From IMG/VR virus record IMGVR_UViG_2778261164_000003: a DNA stretch of 19,950 bases, one strand, 5' to 3'. Both the position numbers and the translations under genes were made by a program. The notes beneath the pieces are model-generated. The model worked only from the letters and a program-made list of their open reading frames with translations. It was not told where the DNA came from and made no database searches. This document shows, in pieces, positions 1 through 19,950 of the stretch. Numbering within the stretch: position 1 is the stretch's first letter; each line of letters opens with the position of its first letter. The DNA is from a virus. Its lineage: Duplodnaviria; Heunggongvirae; Uroviricota; Caudoviricetes.

Positions 1-136
1 GGAATGGTCTGTGTTGTCGGGAGGATGCGTGATCTGATCCTTCAACTCAGCAAAAGTTCGATTTATTCAACAAAGCCCTGTATTGGTTAAGCAATAAACA
101 GACAGCAATTACTCTCAACTGAACCTGAAAATCCAA

Positions 137-162
137 AGCCTAATAATTTAGGCTTTGGTCTC
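137..162 (-). terminator. Putative intrinsic terminator of the RT operon
   Basis: Perfect hairpin CCAAAGCCTAA-TAAT-TTAGGCTTTGG (11-bp stem). On the minus strand it is followed by AUUUUC; on the plus strand by a T7 run. Confidence 0.5.
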
Positions 163-299
163 AAACTGTTTTTTTAGCTTAAGTTTAAGCATTCAAGCCG
201 ATTTCAGTTCCAGCGAAATCGTCTTCATAATCGATATAAAATACACCGACGACGATGACGTAAGTATTTTGAAACTGACCACGACTCATATTTATCAAA
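163..299 (-). ncRNA. Candidate structured non-coding RNA 3' of the second RT gene (speculative)
   Basis: About 137 nt of non-coding sequence between the RT stop (300) and the terminator hairpin. Contains local hairpins (CGATTTC-9nt-GAAATCG at 199..221; GCTTAA-GT-TTAAGC at about 174..187). DRT-type RT systems are known to need a cognate ncRNA. Confidence 0.2.
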
Positions 300-2318
300 T
301 TAATAGCTTTCTTTCAATTCTTTTTTCTCAATCATTTTCACAATATCTAACTCATCCCACTTGACAAACCAATATGTTTGAAGCAGAGATTGCAAATCAT
401 TCTCAATCTCCAGATGACTTCTGTTCAGCTTTGGCTCATAGCTCTTGAGATATTTTCTATATAAAAAACGCCTTGTCTCTATTGAGACAAATGGACATGA
501 CATGACATCCAAAAATAAATGTGCCTTTTCCGATGATTGCAGCAAATCCATATTAGAACTTAATATTTCCTTTATTTCACCCTCTATTATACACTTCAAT
601 TTTCGGAATGATCTTCTGTTTCTAAAATAGAATAGCAGTGAGATTATAGTAAAGTAGTCCAATTTCTTTTTATGTATAACTCCATGAAAAAAACTGTCAC
701 TTATAAGATAATTATCTCCAAAAAAAGTAGCAGCCAAGATTAAATTAACCTTTTCAATTGAAATGAAATCATCAATAAACAGCCCATTATCATTCTCACC
801 AAAATTAATGTTTTCCGCAGCATTCACTAACGTAGTCATAAAAATACTACTATAGTCACTAGATATTTCATTCAAATAGTTATTAACAACAACCATTGTC
901 TTTGATAATTTATAAGATGATGAAACAGTTGGGTTAACACTGAAAAAGAACAACATAATATCGGTTATTGTGAAAATTAAGTCCTTAATCCTTTTTTTTA
1001 CATCTACATCATCTTCATTTTCTTGAACTCGTAATATATCAATTATTGATATTAATCTTTTGGAAAGAGATGATATTATATATGATGAAACATCAGAATA
1101 AGACACTTGATTTTCAATGCATATAGACTTGACATGATTAATTACATATATCTTTAAATCATGCTTACTTCTTATTTTATTTAAAGTAAAGCCACTATCA
1201 CGTTTTTCATACAGTTTAATTTCTAAATTGCGAATTAATTCATTAACTTTGACAATCAAACTTGTCTTGCTAGTGCAAAATGGCCTAGAATACTTCTTAA
1301 GCTTGTTTACATTTAATTGTAGATTATATTCATTTAACTTCACATTAATTATTTTTGTAATAACTTCGGCACTTGACTCACCATTACAAAAAACAATAAA
1401 ATCATCTACATATCTCAATATAACATAATCTTTATTATTAACCCATCCATGTTCACTAAGAAGGCATGACTCAATATTGCAATCAATTCGCTGAAATATT
1501 AATTCTGCAAAAACCCTGCTAAACTCTGAACCAATAGGTATTCCATTTGTTTCATTATTATTGCTACGTTGCATCAGTGTATCTAATTCTTGTCCAAATT
1601 GATTGCTGTGTTTAACATGTTTTTTGATATATGATTTATTTTTTAATGCCCAAGAAACCGAATGCGTATATATGCTATCAAAACAATGTGATACATCTAA
1701 CATCCACATCACCGAGAATCTTTTCTCAAGCTCAATAAACATCTTACTTTGAAATAGTTTATATATCCTGTTGAAACCGCCATAACTAAAATAAGAGGAT
1801 GAATATTTCCTCATTAACTCATCCTTTGTTGTTTCGATATCTTCCCCTTTATATTTTTCCAAAGCATTATTTTCATATAAAAAGAAAGAGTTAGCGACCT
1901 TACGTGGGTAGCGAATAGAAAAATTACTTTTTAAAGTATTTAATGTGATAACGGATGAGTATGTTTTATAAAATTCCGAATAATTAATTTGAGATCTTGG
2001 GTGAATTAAAGAAAGATGTCTTTGGCTAAAGGCATCTTTTACTATACAATAGCCAAATGGGGAGCTTTGTTTCTTCTTTTCTCGGTGGCGATCTGCGACA
2101 CTAATAGAAGAGTCTAAATTAGGGTTAACTATTTTTTTTAAGAAAGAAGAAACCGGAGTAAAATGTAACAAATCATTACAAACTCTATCATATTCTGTTA
2201 AGTTTATATATAAGCCATCATTTGAAAAAATAATTGGACAATCACCGGGCAGTGTATCACATAGTAAAGCCCTGAGATAATCTTTCTTATCAAGTTTAAT
2301 GTTTTTCTTTATAACCAT
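300..2318 (-). CDS. Reverse transcriptase, 672 aa, with long C-terminal extension (second gene of two-RT operon; UG8-like assignment tentative)
   Basis: RT motif A WMLDVSHCFDSI, motif B GIPIGSEFSRVFAELIF, motif C with catalytic YVDD (VILRYVDDFIVF). ATG at 2318 overlaps the upstream gene's stop by 10 nt (ATATGGTTATAA). Very AT-rich. Confidence 0.85.
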   Translation of the reverse strand: MVIKKNIKLDKKDYLRALLCDTLPGDCPIIFSNDGLYINLTEYDRVCNDLLHFTPVSSFLKKIVNPNLDSSISVADRHREKKKQSSPFGYCIVKDAFSQRHLSLIHPRSQINYSEFYKTYSSVITLNTLKSNFSIRYPRKVANSFFLYENNALEKYKGEDIETTKDELMRKYSSSYFSYGGFNRIYKLFQSKMFIELEKRFSVMWMLDVSHCFDSIYTHSVSWALKNKSYIKKHVKHSNQFGQELDTLMQRSNNNETNGIPIGSEFSRVFAELIFQRIDCNIESCLLSEHGWVNNKDYVILRYVDDFIVFCNGESSAEVITKIINVKLNEYNLQLNVNKLKKYSRPFCTSKTSLIVKVNELIRNLEIKLYEKRDSGFTLNKIRSKHDLKIYVINHVKSICIENQVSYSDVSSYIISSLSKRLISIIDILRVQENEDDVDVKKRIKDLIFTITDIMLFFFSVNPTVSSSYKLSKTMVVVNNYLNEISSDYSSIFMTTLVNAAENINFGENDNGLFIDDFISIEKVNLILAATFFGDNYLISDSFFHGVIHKKKLDYFTIISLLFYFRNRRSFRKLKCIIEGEIKEILSSNMDLLQSSEKAHLFLDVMSCPFVSIETRRFLYRKYLKSYEPKLNRSHLEIENDLQSLLQTYWFVKWDELDIVKMIEKKELKESY

Positions 2319-3586
2319 ATTTTTGTAATCTCAGTATAGCGCTTAAAGTTATACTTTCTATATACTCTATCCACAAAGCCTTTTCTAAAACTATTTCTTA
2401 GCAGTTCTTTTTTTTGCTTCAAATTAAAAGGTTTTTTTGCAACACTATTCAAACGCCCAGTATTAGATTGCACACAATATAGCAAAAAGTCATCTAATTT
2501 TTTTAGGGATATGGAGTCAACATCTAACTTCGCATTACTGTAATAAATACCTGTACTTATCTTGCTTTTTTCTAAAGAACTTAACGATTTTATTTTGCGA
2601 TTTAAATCCCTGTTACTAGTCAAAAAAGAAATCCTGTCTAGCAATAGTTTAAAATCACCATTAATATGATAAGAGTAGAAAGACCTAGCTATTCTTGTTT
2701 TAATTTTCTTCAGGCGAGATTTAGATAAATTAACAACAACCTTTCTGTAACAGCTATTAATCTCACCATCTTTGCTCAAAGGTGTGTCTATTATAGAAAA
2801 CGAGTACCCTAGAAAGTCAAATTCATGAAGCAATTTATCCTGTTTATTTAAACCCTTACTTCTCTTTGGTATGCATGGAGATATTTTTAATTTATTTTTA
2901 TTTAAAGCCAATCCCTTTGGTAATACATCTTGTATAAATTCCATAAAGGACGCTTCACATTCACAACCACTTGAAACGATTACCATATCATCTACAAATC
3001 TTGAATAATAAAATACTTCTGGATGCCTATGAATACTATTATCTAATTGTGCCAAGTACAATTCTGATAACATAGGACTAATTTCTAACCCTCTAGGTAA
3101 TCCTTTCGAAGAGTGAAGCCTTTCACACGATTTAAGATACCATTCTAGCAAATTTTTTGTATGTCTAGACAGTCGTGTTTCGTTATGTAAGAGCTGAAAA
3201 AGCTGCGGTAAATCAATTGATTCAAAGAAAGACTTTATATCCAAACGATATATTTTGAATGGAGTACCTTCTTCCAAATAAATTTTAAGCTCACTAATTA
3301 TTGTATTTCGTTGTTTGGGACGAAGCGATTCAAGGCATTTTAAATTTGCATTGCAATGTCTAAGTATTATTTTTTCCTTCAAACATGAAGCAGTGTAAAC
3401 GCAGCGTCCCTTAATATTTAGTTTCTTTACACTCACACCAGAGCGAAAATTCTCATTAGCAATTAAAACGGCATCACTAATTAATGATTCTAACTCAGCA
3501 ACATTATTTTTTTTAAAATAATAAGCCTTCTCACTTTCACTTAAGTTTCGTTTAAGTGCTGCTGAAGTAAACGGCTGACGGTTCAT
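2309..3586 (-). CDS. Reverse transcriptase, 425 aa (first gene of two-RT operon; UG3-like assignment tentative)
   Basis: RT motif A YRLDIKSFFESID, motif B GLPRGLEISPMLSELYL, motif C FVDD (YYSRFVDDMVIV), later FDFLGYSF. ATG at 3586 preceded by GAGGG Shine-Dalgarno. Confidence 0.85.
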   Translation of the reverse strand: MNRQPFTSAALKRNLSESEKAYYFKKNNVAELESLISDAVLIANENFRSGVSVKKLNIKGRCVYTASCLKEKIILRHCNANLKCLESLRPKQRNTIISELKIYLEEGTPFKIYRLDIKSFFESIDLPQLFQLLHNETRLSRHTKNLLEWYLKSCERLHSSKGLPRGLEISPMLSELYLAQLDNSIHRHPEVFYYSRFVDDMVIVSSGCECEASFMEFIQDVLPKGLALNKNKLKISPCIPKRSKGLNKQDKLLHEFDFLGYSFSIIDTPLSKDGEINSCYRKVVVNLSKSRLKKIKTRIARSFYSYHINGDFKLLLDRISFLTSNRDLNRKIKSLSSLEKSKISTGIYYSNAKLDVDSISLKKLDDFLLYCVQSNTGRLNSVAKKPFNLKQKKELLRNSFRKGFVDRVYRKYNFKRYTEITKIWL

Positions 3587-3930
3587 AATACCCTCATTAA
3601 ACTATCCTCTGTACTTTTTATAGCTCTTTCCATCACTTCCCGCAATCGTATCTCCACAACAGCGACCGCTTTATATAGCAATTTTCATAACTTCGATTAC
3701 AGCTCAAAACATGCGGTAACCGTGCCATAGTTATACCATTCAACGCCCTTACGCGGGCAGCCCCGCACGCCTGCCCGCTTCGCTTAACAGACTGGTTTTC
3801 ATGCATGCCATAAATCGTCTCAGATACCACCACACAAAGGTTTTCGCCTCAAAAAGGGTGCATAAGACTCATGCATTTTCATGCGCCATAGACATGCACT
3901 CATACGCTCTCAGGCCAGCCAGGGAAAAGG

Positions 3931-3960
3931 TGTTAAAAATCCCGGTACTCGACCGGGATT
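3931..3960 (-). terminator. Intrinsic terminator ending the satellite late operon
   Basis: Hairpin AATCCCGGT-ACTCG-ACCGGGATT. On the minus strand it is followed by UUUUUAACA, directly after the Ogr/Delta stop at 3981. Confidence 0.55.
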
Positions 3961-3980
3961 ACGTGGGCGTTTTTTTCTAA

Positions 3981-4253
3981 TCAGACAGGAATCTGCTGAC
4001 GGCTTGACAGTTTTGACGCGGAGCCATAGCGATTGAGCGTTTGCTGTTGTTTTACCGGGGGTTGTGATTTGTCTGGTTCCTGTTCATTGCGCCGGGGTTT
4101 CATGATTATCTTATCCACACTCTCCAGTGCCGTAAATGTGCAGGAACATTCCAGATTCTGGCACTGATACCACGAGCGTTTAACTGACGGAGCTTCATAG
4201 GCTGCTGTTCTGGCGTGTGCAACTGTACCGCATTCCGGACATTTAAGTGCCAT
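3981..4253 (-). CDS. Ogr/Delta-family zinc-finger late-gene transcriptional activator
   Basis: MALKCPECGTVAHARTAAYEAPSVKRSWYQCQNLECSCTFTALESV matches the P2 Ogr C-x2-C...C-x4-C zinc-finger pattern (CPLCQHAAHART...HQCQNVNCSATF). Track start 4262 is GTG; ATG at 4253 has an AGGAG Shine-Dalgarno. Confidence 0.85.
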   Translation of the reverse strand: MALKCPECGTVAHARTAAYEAPSVKRSWYQCQNLECSCTFTALESVDKIIMKPRRNEQEPDKSQPPVKQQQTLNRYGSASKLSSRQQIPV

Positions 4254-10597: not shown

Positions 10598-11422
10598 TTA
10601 GTTAAACTTAATGTTTTTCATGCAACTACGTAGCAAACTAACAACAGTATCATAGCTCAAAGGCGGTTCTCCGGTCTTAGGCCAGAACTCACTGGCATGT
10701 TGAAAAAGATAATCAGCTATCGCTGCTGGACTCTCTCTTCTTAGCCTCATATCACGATGATAGAGCGAAATAATAGCCATGAGTATTTCAGCTCGAGGAA
10801 CAGCATGTTTTTGTTTTTGCGCCTCAGATTGTGATTTATATTTATTGGCGTTTTTTATCCGCTTTTGTTCGCATAAGACTATATCAATGAATTTTTGAAT
10901 CTGTACCTTTGTAATCCACAAAACCTCAAAAAGATAATAATTTTCTTTTTCATCATAATTTACATAAAGAATTACCTTACAATTTATATTAGGCGTACCC
11001 GCCAGTAGAAAATGAATAGGCCAGGAATCCGGTTGCCCCTCATGCTTAACTAACAGATCTTTATATTCATAATCAACAGCCCATAAACCGGATATGAAGC
11101 ATCGAATAAAACCATTTTTATCAATTAAATTATCTTCATCAGGGATTCTTATAGAACTTAAGTCTGACAACATAATATTGCCATTTCTATCTCGTGGTAA
11201 ATATTTCAGATTAGATAAGAACTCATCTATTTGACCATCAATCTTCAAACCACATGAAACATCATACTCATCATCATGGAATTCCATGCATAGCTCTACA
11301 TCTCGTTCTCTGGCAAACCAGAGTATATCCTTTTCACTACAACCAATTTTTTCTGAAGCTTCATCCAACTGGTAGTAATCTCTGAGCAGAGAATCAGTAT
11401 TATTAATTTTTAAAATATTCAT
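10598..11422 (-). CDS. Hypothetical protein, 274 aa, AT-rich cargo gene coupled to the integrase
   Basis: Its ATG overlaps the integrase stop (ATGA). Composition is strongly AT-rich relative to neighbours. No catalytic motif recognised. Confidence 0.6.
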   Translation of the reverse strand: MNILKINNTDSLLRDYYQLDEASEKIGCSEKDILWFARERDVELCMEFHDDEYDVSCGLKIDGQIDEFLSNLKYLPRDRNGNIMLSDLSSIRIPDEDNLIDKNGFIRCFISGLWAVDYEYKDLLVKHEGQPDSWPIHFLLAGTPNINCKVILYVNYDEKENYYLFEVLWITKVQIQKFIDIVLCEQKRIKNANKYKSQSEAQKQKHAVPRAEILMAIISLYHRDMRLRRESPAAIADYLFQHASEFWPKTGEPPLSYDTVVSLLRSCMKNIKFN

Positions 11423-12609
11423 TTATGAGTACCAATTTGCTCAGATAAATAATTAGCATACCATTGCATCATTTCTCTTCTCCCTTCGAGATATTGGGCA
11501 TGGTTATAAATTCCACGAATAGAGTTTTTGTCCGAATGAGCAAGCTGGGTTTCAATCCAAGCGCTGTTAAATCCTTTCTCATGTAGGATTGTACTCATCG
11601 TATGCCTGAAACCATGCCCCGTAACACGCCCTGCATATCCAATACGTTTAAACACCTGATTAATGCTTGCTTCACTCATAAATTTGCTGGGATCGTTGCG
11701 TCCAGGGAACATCAGCGGGTAGTTCCCAGTTAGTTCTTTCAAACTTTTGAGATGGGATAATGCTTGTTTTGACAACGGGACAATATGGCTCCTACGCATT
11801 TTCATACGTTCTTTTGGGATCTCCCACACCGCATTATCAAAATCCACCTCTCGCCACTCACCTGCTCGTAGTTCTCCAGTTCGTAGACCTGTCAGGATAA
11901 GTAAATGCGCCCCCAACAATACAATTGGACTTCCTGAATAAGAATTAAGGGCATTAAAGAACTCCGGTAGTTCGTTGGCTTTGAGGAATGGATAGTGGAC
12001 TGCTTCATGTCCTTGCATCGCACTGGCAAGATCCGGTGCCGGATTGTAGATTGCCCTACCCGTTACGATGGCATAGCGAAAAACTTCACCGCATCGCTGA
12101 CGGACTTTCTTCGCTTTCTCCATAGCGCCTCGAGCTTCTATCAACCTCAGAACTTCAAGCAGTTCAAGGGGCTGAATATCAGCTATAGGTCTGTGCCCAA
12201 TATGCGGGAAAATGTCTTTCTCGAATGCCTCAATGATGTCGGAAGCATAGCCCTCAGACCATTTGGGTGATTTCATTTTGTGCCACTCTAACGCCACTTC
12301 TCTGAATGGGTTAAGTGTCTCACTCGCTGCATTTAAAGCCTGCTTTTTGGCTTTTTTGACTTCGCCGGGATCTTCACCTGCTGCGAGTAGTTTCTTCGCG
12401 TCTTCTCGTTTTTGTCTGGCATCAGCAAGTGTGACTGTTGGATAAACACCAAAGGACAATCGTTTCTCTTTACCAGCAAAACGGTATTTCATACGCCAGT
12501 AACGCGAGCCATTAGGTTCGACCTGAAGGTATAGGCCACCTCCATCAAACAGCTTGTAGCTCTTCTCTTTTCCTTTCGCAGCTTCAACCTTGCGGGCATT
12601 CAGCATCAT
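11419..12609 (-). CDS. int: P4-type tyrosine integrase
   Basis: N-terminal KLFDGGGLYLQV...YWRMKYRF arm-binding region and C-terminal catalytic HGFRHT...RGIYNHAQY. Track start 12678 is TTG; tandem ATG ATG at 12609 with AGGAAA upstream. Confidence 0.9.
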   Translation of the reverse strand: MMLNARKVEAAKGKEKSYKLFDGGGLYLQVEPNGSRYWRMKYRFAGKEKRLSFGVYPTVTLADARQKREDAKKLLAAGEDPGEVKKAKKQALNAASETLNPFREVALEWHKMKSPKWSEGYASDIIEAFEKDIFPHIGHRPIADIQPLELLEVLRLIEARGAMEKAKKVRQRCGEVFRYAIVTGRAIYNPAPDLASAMQGHEAVHYPFLKANELPEFFNALNSYSGSPIVLLGAHLLILTGLRTGELRAGEWREVDFDNAVWEIPKERMKMRRSHIVPLSKQALSHLKSLKELTGNYPLMFPGRNDPSKFMSEASINQVFKRIGYAGRVTGHGFRHTMSTILHEKGFNSAWIETQLAHSDKNSIRGIYNHAQYLEGRREMMQWYANYLSEQIGTHK

Positions 12610-12685
12610 TGGGGGCACATTTCCTAGACCGAACAGAACATGCCCCTGATTGTGCCCCCAACCGCGTGTTGATTTCAAGAGACAA

Positions 12686-13234: not shown

Positions 13235-14929
13235 CTAATTGGTCTCTATAATTGAGCTTAATTCGTTAATGAGCAGGTGAGGGCTCATTTGAGTTAAGTC
13301 ATACTGCCTCCCCAATTTCTCTTGCATTCCTCCTCGTATTTTCTTTAATAAATATTTGCCTTTAATGTTATTAACTGATGTCGGAACTTGGTTTCCAAAT
13401 AATGTTAGGTGTCGAGGGCATGCTTCCAGTCTCCCCTTATATAAATTATATTTAATCACCTCTCTTTTGGATTGAAAATCAGACTGGATGACAACATGAT
13501 TTTGTGCGGCTATATCAGTAATCCATGTTTGTATATCTTGCACAGAAGAGCCTGTAACATGAGATAAATGCTCTATTCTGGTAAAATAACTCTCAATATC
13601 ACTACCTTCAGTAATGAATGGAATGGCGCCACCTCTTTGAATTTCTGCTTTTACTATATCTACTTCTTCATCAGTCATAAAATCGCGGTCACGATGAATT
13701 ATAACCTTGCAATTAGGGGACATTTCCTTAAGAAGGTCAGCAGATACAATTGCTCCTTGCACATTTGTGCATGTTTTGTAGCTATAGACTGCAGTTCTCT
13801 CCATATCAAAACCATTATATTGTAAAAGGGCCTTGAAATATTTTTTATCTCTATCTTCAGTGAGAAATATATTCTCCACAACCCCTTCAGTTACTCTATC
13901 CAAGTCATTTAAAGCTCCTAAATCTAAGAACATTGATATTTTGTCCAAATCCATGCCTTGATTCTGAACATTACCATCTTTCATCCAAATAAAATTTGCC
14001 TCTCCATACAATGAATCAATTATATGTTTGCTATGAGTGGAAAGTATAACTTGAGTTTCTGATTTGTTATTTTCTGATATTAAACTCAATGAGTCAGTGA
14101 GAATATATTGATTATCAGGGTGAAGATGAGAATCCGGTTCATCTAAGAGTAATAATTTAGGTTTGAAATATACTATATATGCAAATATCTGTAATGTTTG
14201 AAGTAATCCAGTTCCCGCCAACTCGATAGGGTAATTTTTCCCACTTGCATTTTCTTTAAAATTAACGGTTAGATAAGTATCTTTATCCTCTTTGAAATCC
14301 ACTTCGATTTCTATATCTGGAAATACAACTTGCAGCATGCTATTGAGATTTACCAAGTGGTTATCTTTGTTCAGATAGTATATGACATTCCTTAAGTATA
14401 AATTTGCATCACCACTTGCCACTCCTCTTCTAACTATTGCTGGCGATTTTAATTCTTCCTTCTGTGAGATACCAGCCAGACCAGGAACATATATACTAAA
14501 GAGATTTTTTTCATCGGTGATTACTGAACCGAAGCCGGTATAATCACCGGTTCTTTCACATGACATATTTCCATGATTTCGTCCCTTAGATATAATTATA
14601 TTGTATTCTAATTGTCGACCAACAAGATCATCATATCCAAAAAGACTCAACACACTTTGATTGCCAGGCGACCTCGAATTCTTATAAGGTTCGCCGTTCT
14701 TTAAAACAGTGAAGTCTGGGGTGATATTATACATTAAAAGTTCAGTAGAGAATGTTTGTTGACTTTGTTGCCGAGCGGCAATAGCTGCGCATACTGAAAA
14801 ATGTATAGCTTGCAGAATACTGCTCTTACCTGAACTATTTGCCCCTACTAATACATTTATATCACTAAGGGTGATTTCTGCTGTGTCAATTTTTTTGAAT
14901 TTACTAACAGACAAAGACTTAATGAACAT
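13235..14929 (-). CDS. OLD-family ATP-dependent nuclease (ABC-type ATPase plus Toprim), standalone class-1 type like phage P2 Old
   Basis: Walker A LVGANSSGKSS, Walker B/H-loop LLLLDEPDSHLHPDNQ and LSTHS; C-terminal Toprim-like NIFLTEDRD and VIIHRDRDF. Length comparable to P2 Old and GajA. No UvrD-like partner follows. Track start 14947 is TTG; ATG at 14929 has an AAGGAA Shine-Dalgarno. Confidence 0.7.
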   Translation of the reverse strand: MFIKSLSVSKFKKIDTAEITLSDINVLVGANSSGKSSILQAIHFSVCAAIAARQQSQQTFSTELLMYNITPDFTVLKNGEPYKNSRSPGNQSVLSLFGYDDLVGRQLEYNIIISKGRNHGNMSCERTGDYTGFGSVITDEKNLFSIYVPGLAGISQKEELKSPAIVRRGVASGDANLYLRNVIYYLNKDNHLVNLNSMLQVVFPDIEIEVDFKEDKDTYLTVNFKENASGKNYPIELAGTGLLQTLQIFAYIVYFKPKLLLLDEPDSHLHPDNQYILTDSLSLISENNKSETQVILSTHSKHIIDSLYGEANFIWMKDGNVQNQGMDLDKISMFLDLGALNDLDRVTEGVVENIFLTEDRDKKYFKALLQYNGFDMERTAVYSYKTCTNVQGAIVSADLLKEMSPNCKVIIHRDRDFMTDEEVDIVKAEIQRGGAIPFITEGSDIESYFTRIEHLSHVTGSSVQDIQTWITDIAAQNHVVIQSDFQSKREVIKYNLYKGRLEACPRHLTLFGNQVPTSVNNIKGKYLLKKIRGGMQEKLGRQYDLTQMSPHLLINELSSIIETN

Positions 14930-14976
14930 TTTCTTTTCCTTTTTCAATGAAAGGTGTAAAACTTTAACTCATCATT

Positions 14977-19197: not shown

Positions 19198-19239
19198 AAC
19201 CGCAGCACGATCTTCTTCCATACGACGTGCTACGGTTTC
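19198..19239. repeat. Hairpin-containing repeat, copy C; likely bidirectional terminator between convergent genes
   Basis: CCGCAGCACG-16nt-CGTGCTACGG (9 of 10 bp paired) matching the 3' part of copies A and B. Flanked by T-rich tracts on both strands. Sits between the GIY-YIG stop (19177) and the invertase stop (19238). Confidence 0.6.
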
Positions 19240-19792
19240 ATTTATCTCCGACCGGAAACTTCTTATACAGTGTCGATATACCAACATCATAGATGATCGC
19301 CACCTTCTGGCGAGGGACGCCTGATGCAATTAATCGCCCGGCCTGCGCCCATTGTTCTGGTGTAAGTTTGGGACGACGTCCACCAATTCGTCCCTGTGCG
19401 CGAGCAGCGTCCAGTCCAGCTTTTGTTCGTTCAACAATCAGTTCTCGTTCCATTTCAGCCAGGGCACCCATCATATGAAAGAAAAAACGCCCCATCGGTG
19501 TGCTGGTATCAATAGCATCCGTCAGGCTGCGAAAATTAACGCCACGTTCGCGCAACTCCTCAACCAGAATGACCAGATGCCGCATACTACGCCCCAGCCG
19601 ATCCAGCTTCCAGACAACCAGAGTGTCACCTACCGATAATGTCCTGAGCAGTTTTTTCAGTCCCGGCCTTTCGGACTTTGTACCGCTTATCTTGTCTTCA
19701 AAAATCAGCTCGCATCCTGCACAGTTCAGCGCATTACGTTGTAGATCTGTGTTCTGGTCATTTGTTGACACACGTACATAGCCAATAAGCAT
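19238..19792 (-). CDS. Serine DNA invertase of the Hin/Gin/Pin/Cin family, 184 aa
   Basis: MLIGYVRVSTNDQNTDLQRNAL...LVVWKLDRLGRS...MGRFFFHMMGALAEMERELIVERT...C-terminal HTH. Near-colinear with Hin as recalled. GGGAGA Shine-Dalgarno before ATG 19792 (track start 19828 is upstream). Confidence 0.9.
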   Translation of the reverse strand: MLIGYVRVSTNDQNTDLQRNALNCAGCELIFEDKISGTKSERPGLKKLLRTLSVGDTLVVWKLDRLGRSMRHLVILVEELRERGVNFRSLTDAIDTSTPMGRFFFHMMGALAEMERELIVERTKAGLDAARAQGRIGGRRPKLTPEQWAQAGRLIASGVPRQKVAIIYDVGISTLYKKFPVGDK

Positions 19793-19950
19793 GGTAGATC
19801 TCCCTGACAAAAGCAGGAATGATGCCATTTGCTCGTTATTTCTGCATTTTCATAAACGTTGGTTTGGGAGAATCGGCAAAACGGAATGTGGGCAACGGGG
19901 AAAACCAAATCCCTGATATGTCTTTCTGGACGGTTACTGGTGGCAATGGA

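Follow-up and report, generated by a model that had tools for sequence, protein, structure and literature searches.

The two reverse transcriptase (RT) genes near one end of this Caudoviricetes sequence raise the question whether the non-coding DNA that follows them encodes the ncRNA of a defence system, and whether the part of that RNA which is copied by the RT is there. The window analysed is the whole stretch of 19,950 nucleotides of IMG/VR record IMGVR_UViG_2778261164_000003, and all positions given below refer to it unless another locus is named. An earlier note on the same DNA had placed a candidate structured ncRNA between the stop codon of the second RT gene at position 300 and a strong terminator hairpin at 137..162, and had reasoned that such an RNA, if real, would define the template of the system.

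The DRT3 locus and the RNA downstream of drt3b

The two RT genes are overlapping ORFs on the minus strand, together spanning window 300..3586. The first, drt3a (UG3, class 2 RT), occupies 2309..3586 (-) and encodes 425 aa, and the second, drt3b (UG8, class 1 RT), occupies 300..2318 (-) and encodes 672 aa. Both products match Pfam RVT_1, and their matches to PADLOC Drt3a (E 1.4e-129) and Drt3b (E 8e-204) bear out the earlier assignment of the pair to DRT3. The closest solved structures are PDB 9z6y_H 'Drt3b' for Drt3b (E 3e-113) and 9z6y_A 'Drt3a' for Drt3a (E 3e-55). The window Drt3b is 100% identical to an E. coli protein cluster, has its catalytic motif YVDD at residues 303-306 and retains the C-terminal Tyr672. 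In Drt3a the catalytic motif is FVDD (residues 197-200, window 2993..3004), whereas the characterised EcoDRT3a has YVDD. Drt3a is 32% identical to EcoDRT3a, and both partner proteins are ~30-32% identical to their EcoDRT3 counterparts.

The presence of Ogr/Delta, Psu-like, primase and integrase genes among the neighbours of drt3a and drt3b places the DRT3 locus in a P4-like satellite of E. coli. Past the satellite integrase (11419..12678) the window continues with an AAA_15/AAA_21 ATPase at 13235..14947 (-), perhaps part of a further defence system, and with a serine resolvase at 19238..19828 (-).

The stop codon of drt3b is a TAA at 300..302 (-), and the DNA from 299 downwards is therefore non-coding, as had been stated from the sequence. 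The earlier note had placed DRT3 ncRNAs downstream of the RT genes, and this arrangement is indeed found in two published studies (PMC9226505 and PMC13174585). Folding of the minus-strand RNA 305..125 gave -57 kcal/mol with z = -6.5, and none of 200 shuffled sequences folded as well.

Altogether 72 DRT3 loci were gathered from E. coli genomes, one-per-species genomes, viral and metagenome contigs, and contigs with intermediate homologues. For 12 relatives whose Drt3b is 70-100% identical, the sequences 3′ of drt3b were aligned with MAFFT and the alignment was folded with RNAalifold. In this plain alignment the consensus structure comprises 76 pairs, of which 24 show compensatory changes, including pairs of P1, the stem closing the RNA. 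The core of the intact RNA is ~245 nt long and extends from nt 18 to nt 262 past the drt3b stop; in the window, too, the predicted RNA begins 18 nt past the stop. Compensatory changes extend over this fold, and the two computational checks proposed in the earlier note, RNA folding and covariance analysis across homologous loci, both came out in favour of a structured RNA.

A covariance model, R1, was built from the alignment of the 12 relatives. It matches RNA directly 3′ of drt3b and on the same strand in 34 loci, its reach extending through gammaproteobacteria down to ~40% Drt3b identity. An alignment of 36 rows was then fitted to R1, two weak opposite-strand rows included. Standard pairs make up 93.7% of its cells, against 37-46% when the partners are slid by 1-3 columns; 67 of the 76 pairs change on both sides, and none of 500 shuffles reaches the observed values. 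For P1 the fitted 36 sequences give 98.3% paired cells and covariation at 11 of 12 pairs, and all of these 36-row counts lean towards structure because the alignment was fitted to the model, the unfitted support consisting of the 12 fairly close sequences. An Rfam 15 search of window 1..4200 and of an intact locus gave no relevant match, and no DRT3 ncRNA family was found there.

On the window, R1 has a single match at 290..15 (-) with 180.1 bits and E 1e-49, as opposed to 274.4 bits in intact loci with an identical Drt3b. The last 50 positions of R1 are forced onto insertion sequence (IS) DNA in the window and have low posterior probability. The RNA gene of the window is thus recognised by the model from its beginning, while its end is occupied by foreign sequence, the nature of which is considered below.

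Architecture of the ncRNA and position of its template

P1 is a 12-bp long-range stem that closes the RNA and is followed by a short AAUA/UGUU extension. Its 5′ strand, GUGGUCAGUUUC, lies at 271..282 (-), and the partner strand, GAAACUGACCAC, is absent from the window and would lie on the far side of the IS. Among the 12 MAFFT-aligned, unfitted relatives all 12 of the P1 pairs are 100% paired, with GC>AU, CG>UA and UA>CG changes. P2, at 220..260 (-), is a long hairpin of variable sequence and length in which 17 of 17 pairs show compensatory changes. The domain that follows is held together by P3 and P4, placed by the consensus structure with 5′ strands at 202..216 (-) (P3, UCGCUGG at 210-216; P4, CUGAAA at 202-207) and with 3′ strands at 115..130 (-) (P4, UUUCAG at 125-130; P3, UCAGUUGA at 115-122). 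In the model alignment these helices (numbers 4-6) are 91-100% paired and all their pairs covary. Inside the P3/P4 domain, at 160..199 (-), are two small hairpins, P5 (188-199) and P6 (160-183), found in only about half of the aligned relatives, and P7 (133..158, minus strand). Since P5-P7 are gapped in about half of the model-aligned sequences, they represent a lineage-specific expansion. P8 occupies 78..114 (-), with its 5′ strand GAGUAAUUGCU at 104-114 and an inner hairpin at 78-102, and its 3′ strand is lost from the window; the P8 helices (11-12 in the model alignment) are 98.6% and 91.7% paired.

In intact relatives an unpaired segment, CUUACACACCUGAUG, runs between P8 and the 3′ strand of P1 and leads into that strand, and the template, CUUACACACCUG, is single-stranded just 5′ of it. 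The single-sequence fold of an intact copy contains the same P1 and reaches -89.2 kcal/mol (z = -6.6). No terminator was found when the intact locus was scanned 3′ of P1. Directly after the ncRNA, the E. coli MFDS1022581 locus (~2860..2945, minus strand) carries about eight tandem copies of CCCATGCTT, of which a metagenome relative has only about two. At the other end, a weak sigma-70-like site at 340..367 (-), consisting of TTGTCA, a 16 nt spacer and TATTGT, is situated within the 3′ end of drt3b, ~50 nt upstream of P1. Read from 367 to 340 it fits the promoter at 9 of 12 positions, and such sites are no commoner here than in shuffled sequence; judged by its sequence it could act as a separate promoter of the ncRNA.

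The hairpin taken earlier for an operon terminator at 137..162 is located at 133..158 (-), where it forms 11 bp, CCAAAGCCUAA-AUUA-UUAGGCUUUGG. It is not a terminator but the internal, covarying stem-loop P7 (helices 9-10 of the model alignment, with compensatory changes). The U-run behind it is only four nucleotides long, and the hairpin was not called in the terminator scan of the window. This run of U is itself part of the 3′ strand of P4, in which UUUCAG pairs with CUGAAA, and relatives have no U-tract 3′ of P7. With so short a U-tract, and with conserved paired sequence carrying on downstream, the hairpin differs from an intrinsic terminator. The RNA must read through P7, since the P3 and P4 3′ strands downstream of it pair with 202-216. 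Covarying helices as well as conservation continue to position 78, the latter even in a locus with 79% identity.

Folded on its own, the window RNA forms a local helix, UCAGUUUCA/UGGAACUGA plus GAGUCG/CGGCUU, in which the P1 5′ strand takes the P4 5′ strand. This helix was considered as a candidate and rejected: in the 12 relatives it is paired in 76% of cells, shows no compensatory change and has six U-U oppositions at one position. It is an artefact of the truncation, and the long-range P1 replaces it. The internal stem-loops reported for the region therefore stand in so far as the minus-strand RNA 305..125 folds beyond chance, while part of that predicted fold is such an artefact. Likewise, the proposed ncRNA unit at 163..299 was right in that 137..299 belongs to a structured RNA by covariation, but the RNA continues to 78 and, in intact loci, for a further 40 nt, which makes the unit about twice as long as had been proposed.

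The position of the template was traced by its sequence. In each of the 61 relatives whose sequence extends beyond drt3b, ACACAC lies 3′ of this gene, at 37 to 239 nt past the stop, where chance would provide ~0.1 occurrences per 450 nt. In the five loci whose Drt3b is identical to that of the window it lies 234 nt past the stop, 12 nt beyond the point that corresponds to the IS junction. Neither strand of window 1..299 contains ACACAC. In the window as a whole the hexamer occurs five times, always past position 2,700 and not in excess of the chance expectation; for the extended template motif there is no match even when 3 mismatches are allowed. The suggestion that the flagged interval defines the template of the system is thus contradicted, as ACACAC lies outside that interval and is missing from window 1..299 altogether. 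That the window has no template is due to an IS903-group element, which breaks off the gene at 77/78.

A clade with ~30% Drt3b identity (L033-L047, with Yersinia, Pluralibacter, Proteus, Pseudoalteromonas and others) has CACACAC 37-42 nt past the drt3b stop, except that in L042 the distance is 76 nt. Conserved structured sequence follows CACACAC in this clade (e.g. L036, 3504..3700), and the template is accordingly near the 5′ end, ahead of the structured part, unlike in the window type and in EcoDRT3. The arrangement thus varies within the DRT3 family, as is also noted in PMC9226505.

Two simpler readings of the region have to be set against this architecture. If 163..299 were a complete ncRNA with its template, terminated at 137..162, as first proposed, the stretch should be non-coding and strongly folded, which it is (z = -6.5), and the GC-containing 11-bp hairpin followed by UUUU would fit its end. 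The interval nevertheless lacks the ACACAC that 61 of 61 relatives possess, P1, P3 and P4 pair across the hairpin and covary, and conservation reaches past the hairpin as far as 78, even in a locus with 79% identity; the terminator scan passed the hairpin over, and relatives have no U-tract after P7. We regard this reading as highly improbable. Even less credit is due to the view that the region is a mere terminator-bearing 3′ UTR whose RNA serves no separate function. The lack of an Rfam family would agree with it, but compensatory changes extend over ~245 nt in loci of many genera, the position beside drt3b is invariant, and published experiments require the downstream ncRNA of DRT3 (PMC13174585, PMC9226505), loss of defence on deletion of the region having already been reported for EcoDRT3. 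The earlier note had thus recognised a real RNA gene and the right system; its boundaries, its terminator and its placing of the template in the interval were wrong.

The IS903-group insertion and its probable consequences

Window 1..77 (-) is the terminal 77 bp of an IS903-group (IS5-family) element, with the inverted repeat GGCUUUGUUGAAUAAAUCG at 77..59 and a transposase start near 45. About 2,780 E. coli records match it in their IS5/IS903B transposase regions, and in annotated IS copies the transposase gene, on the minus strand, begins at the position corresponding to window ~45. Both the inverted repeat, GGCTTTGTTGAATAAATC, and the transposase start agree with annotated IS5/IS903B copies, of which the window holds only these last 77 bp. 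When the window, two IS copies and intact DRT3 were aligned, the switch from one sequence to the other fell exactly at 77/78, the last base of the terminal inverted repeat. Loci with an identical Drt3b continue from CCAAUACAG into UUAGUGGUGCUUACACACCUGAUGUUGAGAAACUGACCAC, whereas the window continues from CCAAUACAG into GGCUUUGUUGAAUAAAUCG. The 22 complete E. coli genomes with this DRT3 type match the window only from 78 or 84 on, and both of the junction 30-mers predicted were missing from the viral contigs. A longer IS, reaching to ~90-108 by BLAST, was rejected, as the extension is explained by similar flanks at other insertion sites. The flanks of unrelated IS903-group copies (L073/L074, 1578..1600) resemble window 78..100 (TTGCATTGGTTAA and CTGTATTGGTTAA, respectively), and this resemblance may reflect a target-site preference of IS903.

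The flagged stretch represents the front five-sixths of the ncRNA, the gene being cut 12 bases before ACACAC. We hold with high confidence that 78..282 (-) is the 5′ part of a DRT3 ncRNA gene that has been truncated by an IS903-group element. By R1 and the alignment it comprises the remaining 5′ 205 nt of the ~245-nt core, from the P1 5′ strand through the inner P8 hairpin. The IS at 77/78 removes 40 nt in total, consisting of the P8 3′ strand region UUAGUGGUGCUU (12 nt), the template ACACAC (6 nt), CUGAUGUUGA (10 nt) and the P1 3′ strand (12 nt). The window ncRNA keeps the 5′ strands, and P1 and the outer P8 helix are without partners. The IS end at window 15..50 (-) contains GAGUUGAAGGAUCAGAUCAC, a weak mimic of the lost GUUGAGAAACUGACCAC which could form ~10 of 12 pairs with the P1 5′ strand; the mimicry is judged to be due to chance because no template precedes it.

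In the course of events that we propose, an IS903-group element would have transposed into the ncRNA gene directly after the inner P8 helix. The complete element would be a ~1.06-kb IS903-group IS, with a 9-bp duplication of CTGTATTGG flanking it, and then TTAGTGGTGCTTACACACCTGATGTTGAGAAACTGACCAC. The 3′ 40 nt would thereby have been separated from the rest, and the encoded RNA would be without its template and its closing stem. The amount of IS sequence at the start of the window, exactly 77 bp, is a common k-mer of short-read assemblers, and the start of the window may be a contig end, produced where the assembly broke at the repeated IS.

What such a truncation would mean can be anticipated from the DRT3 system of E. 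coli ECOR12, in which Drt3a copies the 5′-ACACAC-3′ loop of the ncRNA into poly(dT-dG), Drt3b makes poly(dC-dA) without a nucleic-acid template, and RecBCD restrains the dsDNA product (Wang, Yoneyama et al. 2026, PMC13174585). Expression of that ncRNA, its binding by the RT and its requirement were documented by RIP-seq, template mutants and in vitro assays (PMC13174585). By analogy, the ncRNA of the window type would scaffold Drt3a, ACACAC would be the template for repeat addition of poly(dT-dG), and the complementary poly(dC-dA) would come from Drt3b without any nucleic-acid template. The dsDNA formed in this way would accumulate when a phage inhibits RecBCD and would then lead to abortive infection. 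Because mutations in the template loop of EcoDRT3 abolish both product and defence (PMC13174585), the RNA-templated arm is presumably inactive here. This arm, and probably defence with it, is expected to be lost in this genome, and loss of function of the window DRT3 is, by this comparison, the probable outcome of the insertion. The intact Drt3b could, on the same analogy, still be making poly(dC-dA).

The junction on which this reading depends might be an artefact of assembly, either a chimeric join or an overlap at a contig end, with the real ncRNA intact. The window opens inside the IS with exactly 77 bp, typical of a k-mer overlap at a repeat, and the IS-ncRNA junction is carried by none of 5,426 complete E. 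coli genomes. The break coincides, however, with the final base of the terminal inverted repeat of IS903, which is the mark of transposition and not of a random chimera, and a k-mer overlap at a contig end would still need reads that join the IS end to position 78. We therefore consider an artefact quite improbable. A real insertion might, on the other hand, leave a working RNA, either by read-through with a 1-kb insert in P8 or by reassembly of the two halves via P1 (12 bp) and P8 (8 bp). The insertion is in a peripheral helix that might tolerate an insert, outside both the template and P1, the IS transposase gene is co-directional with drt3, which makes read-through conceivable, and drt3a and drt3b are intact with their catalytic motifs. 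Against this, the truncated RNA is predicted to refold, the P1 5′ strand capturing the P4 5′ strand, a 1-kb insert with signals of its own would likely terminate or destabilise the transcript, and the published 6:6:6 complex, as far as it is portrayed in secondary accounts, suggests tight packing of the RNA. A split ncRNA that still works is thus unlikely. It is similarly doubtful that the insertion is no dead end in the wider sense, with the ncRNA tolerating or reassembling around a 1-kb insertion in P8, or with the insertion being a selected off-switch of a system prone to autoimmunity. Were it a selected off-switch, the locus would be a natural separation-of-function allele, with poly(dC-dA) synthesis by Drt3b continuing and the RNA-templated arm silenced.

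Truncation of the ncRNA by transposition, with probable loss of function, is the reading we prefer, and it bears on how DRT3 loci are to be recognised. Having two intact RT genes, the window would be scored by defence-finder tools as a complete DRT3, though it is probably inactive, and DRT3 loci should be judged complete only with an ncRNA 3′ end that bears CACACAC. The IS allele would also be a natural control for separating the activities of Drt3a and Drt3b, strain PEC1003 (NZ_CP160643.1, 3487651-3491159 plus flanks) being one example with the intact but otherwise identical allele.

Comparison with known DRT3 systems and other templating RNAs

Structured RNAs 3′ of UG8 were predicted by Mestre et al. 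2022 (PMC9226505), who distinguished 20 groups of UG8 ncRNA with little sequence similarity between groups. An exposed 'CACACA'-like motif is conserved in groups 1-17 at varying distance from the RT (PMC9226505), and the relatives studied here are alike in this respect, with the motif 37 to 239 nt past the stop. That study gave no mechanism and reported no IS-disrupted copies. The mechanism was established for ECOR12 as described above, and Deng et al. 2026 arrived at the same view with a Drt3a-Drt3b-ncRNA complex of 6:6:6 stoichiometry (PDB 9z6y/9z6z), in which, to judge from what PMC13213688 and PMC13314766 relate of it, an ACACAC-like motif of the ncRNA is the template from which Drt3a makes poly(GT).

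The EcoDRT3 ncRNA is 161 nt long (sequence in Table S3 of PMC13174585). Like the window type it is located directly downstream of drt3b on the same strand, and like the intact form described here it has a conserved 5′-ACACAC-3′ in an unpaired segment. Its predicted fold has a 10-bp stem closing the ends, with ACACAC unpaired just 5′ of the 3′ strand of that stem and a terminator hairpin thereafter, a topology like that of P1 and the template in the intact form. The two differ in that the intact form has a ~245-nt core with additional stem-loops as compared to 161 nt, and in that the EcoDRT3 RNA ends in a GC-rich terminator hairpin whereas the scan of the intact locus found none; the window copy differs further by being without the template. 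No match was obtained when the 161-nt EcoDRT3 ncRNA was compared by blastn with all fetched DRT3 loci, and homology between the two RNAs consequently rests on context, motif and topology. The ~245-nt form of enterobacterial P4 satellites has the extra stem-loops P5-P7 and the highly conserved segment CACACACCUGAUGYUGAG; it adds to the ncRNAs in which elements of the scaffold and of the template boundary can be compared with the 161-nt EcoDRT3 RNA.

The ncRNAs of DRT10 and DRT9 and telomerase RNA are alike in presenting a short single-stranded template, bounded by helices in a scaffold RNA, that is copied repeatedly (PMC12632851, PMC13174585). They differ from DRT3 in RT clade, in template sequence, which is ACACAC in DRT3, and in partners, and among these systems only DRT3 pairs an RNA-templated RT with a protein-templated RT. 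DRT3 ncRNAs and their ACACAC template have already been published, and the copy in the window is a longer and naturally disrupted member of that family, not a new kind of system.
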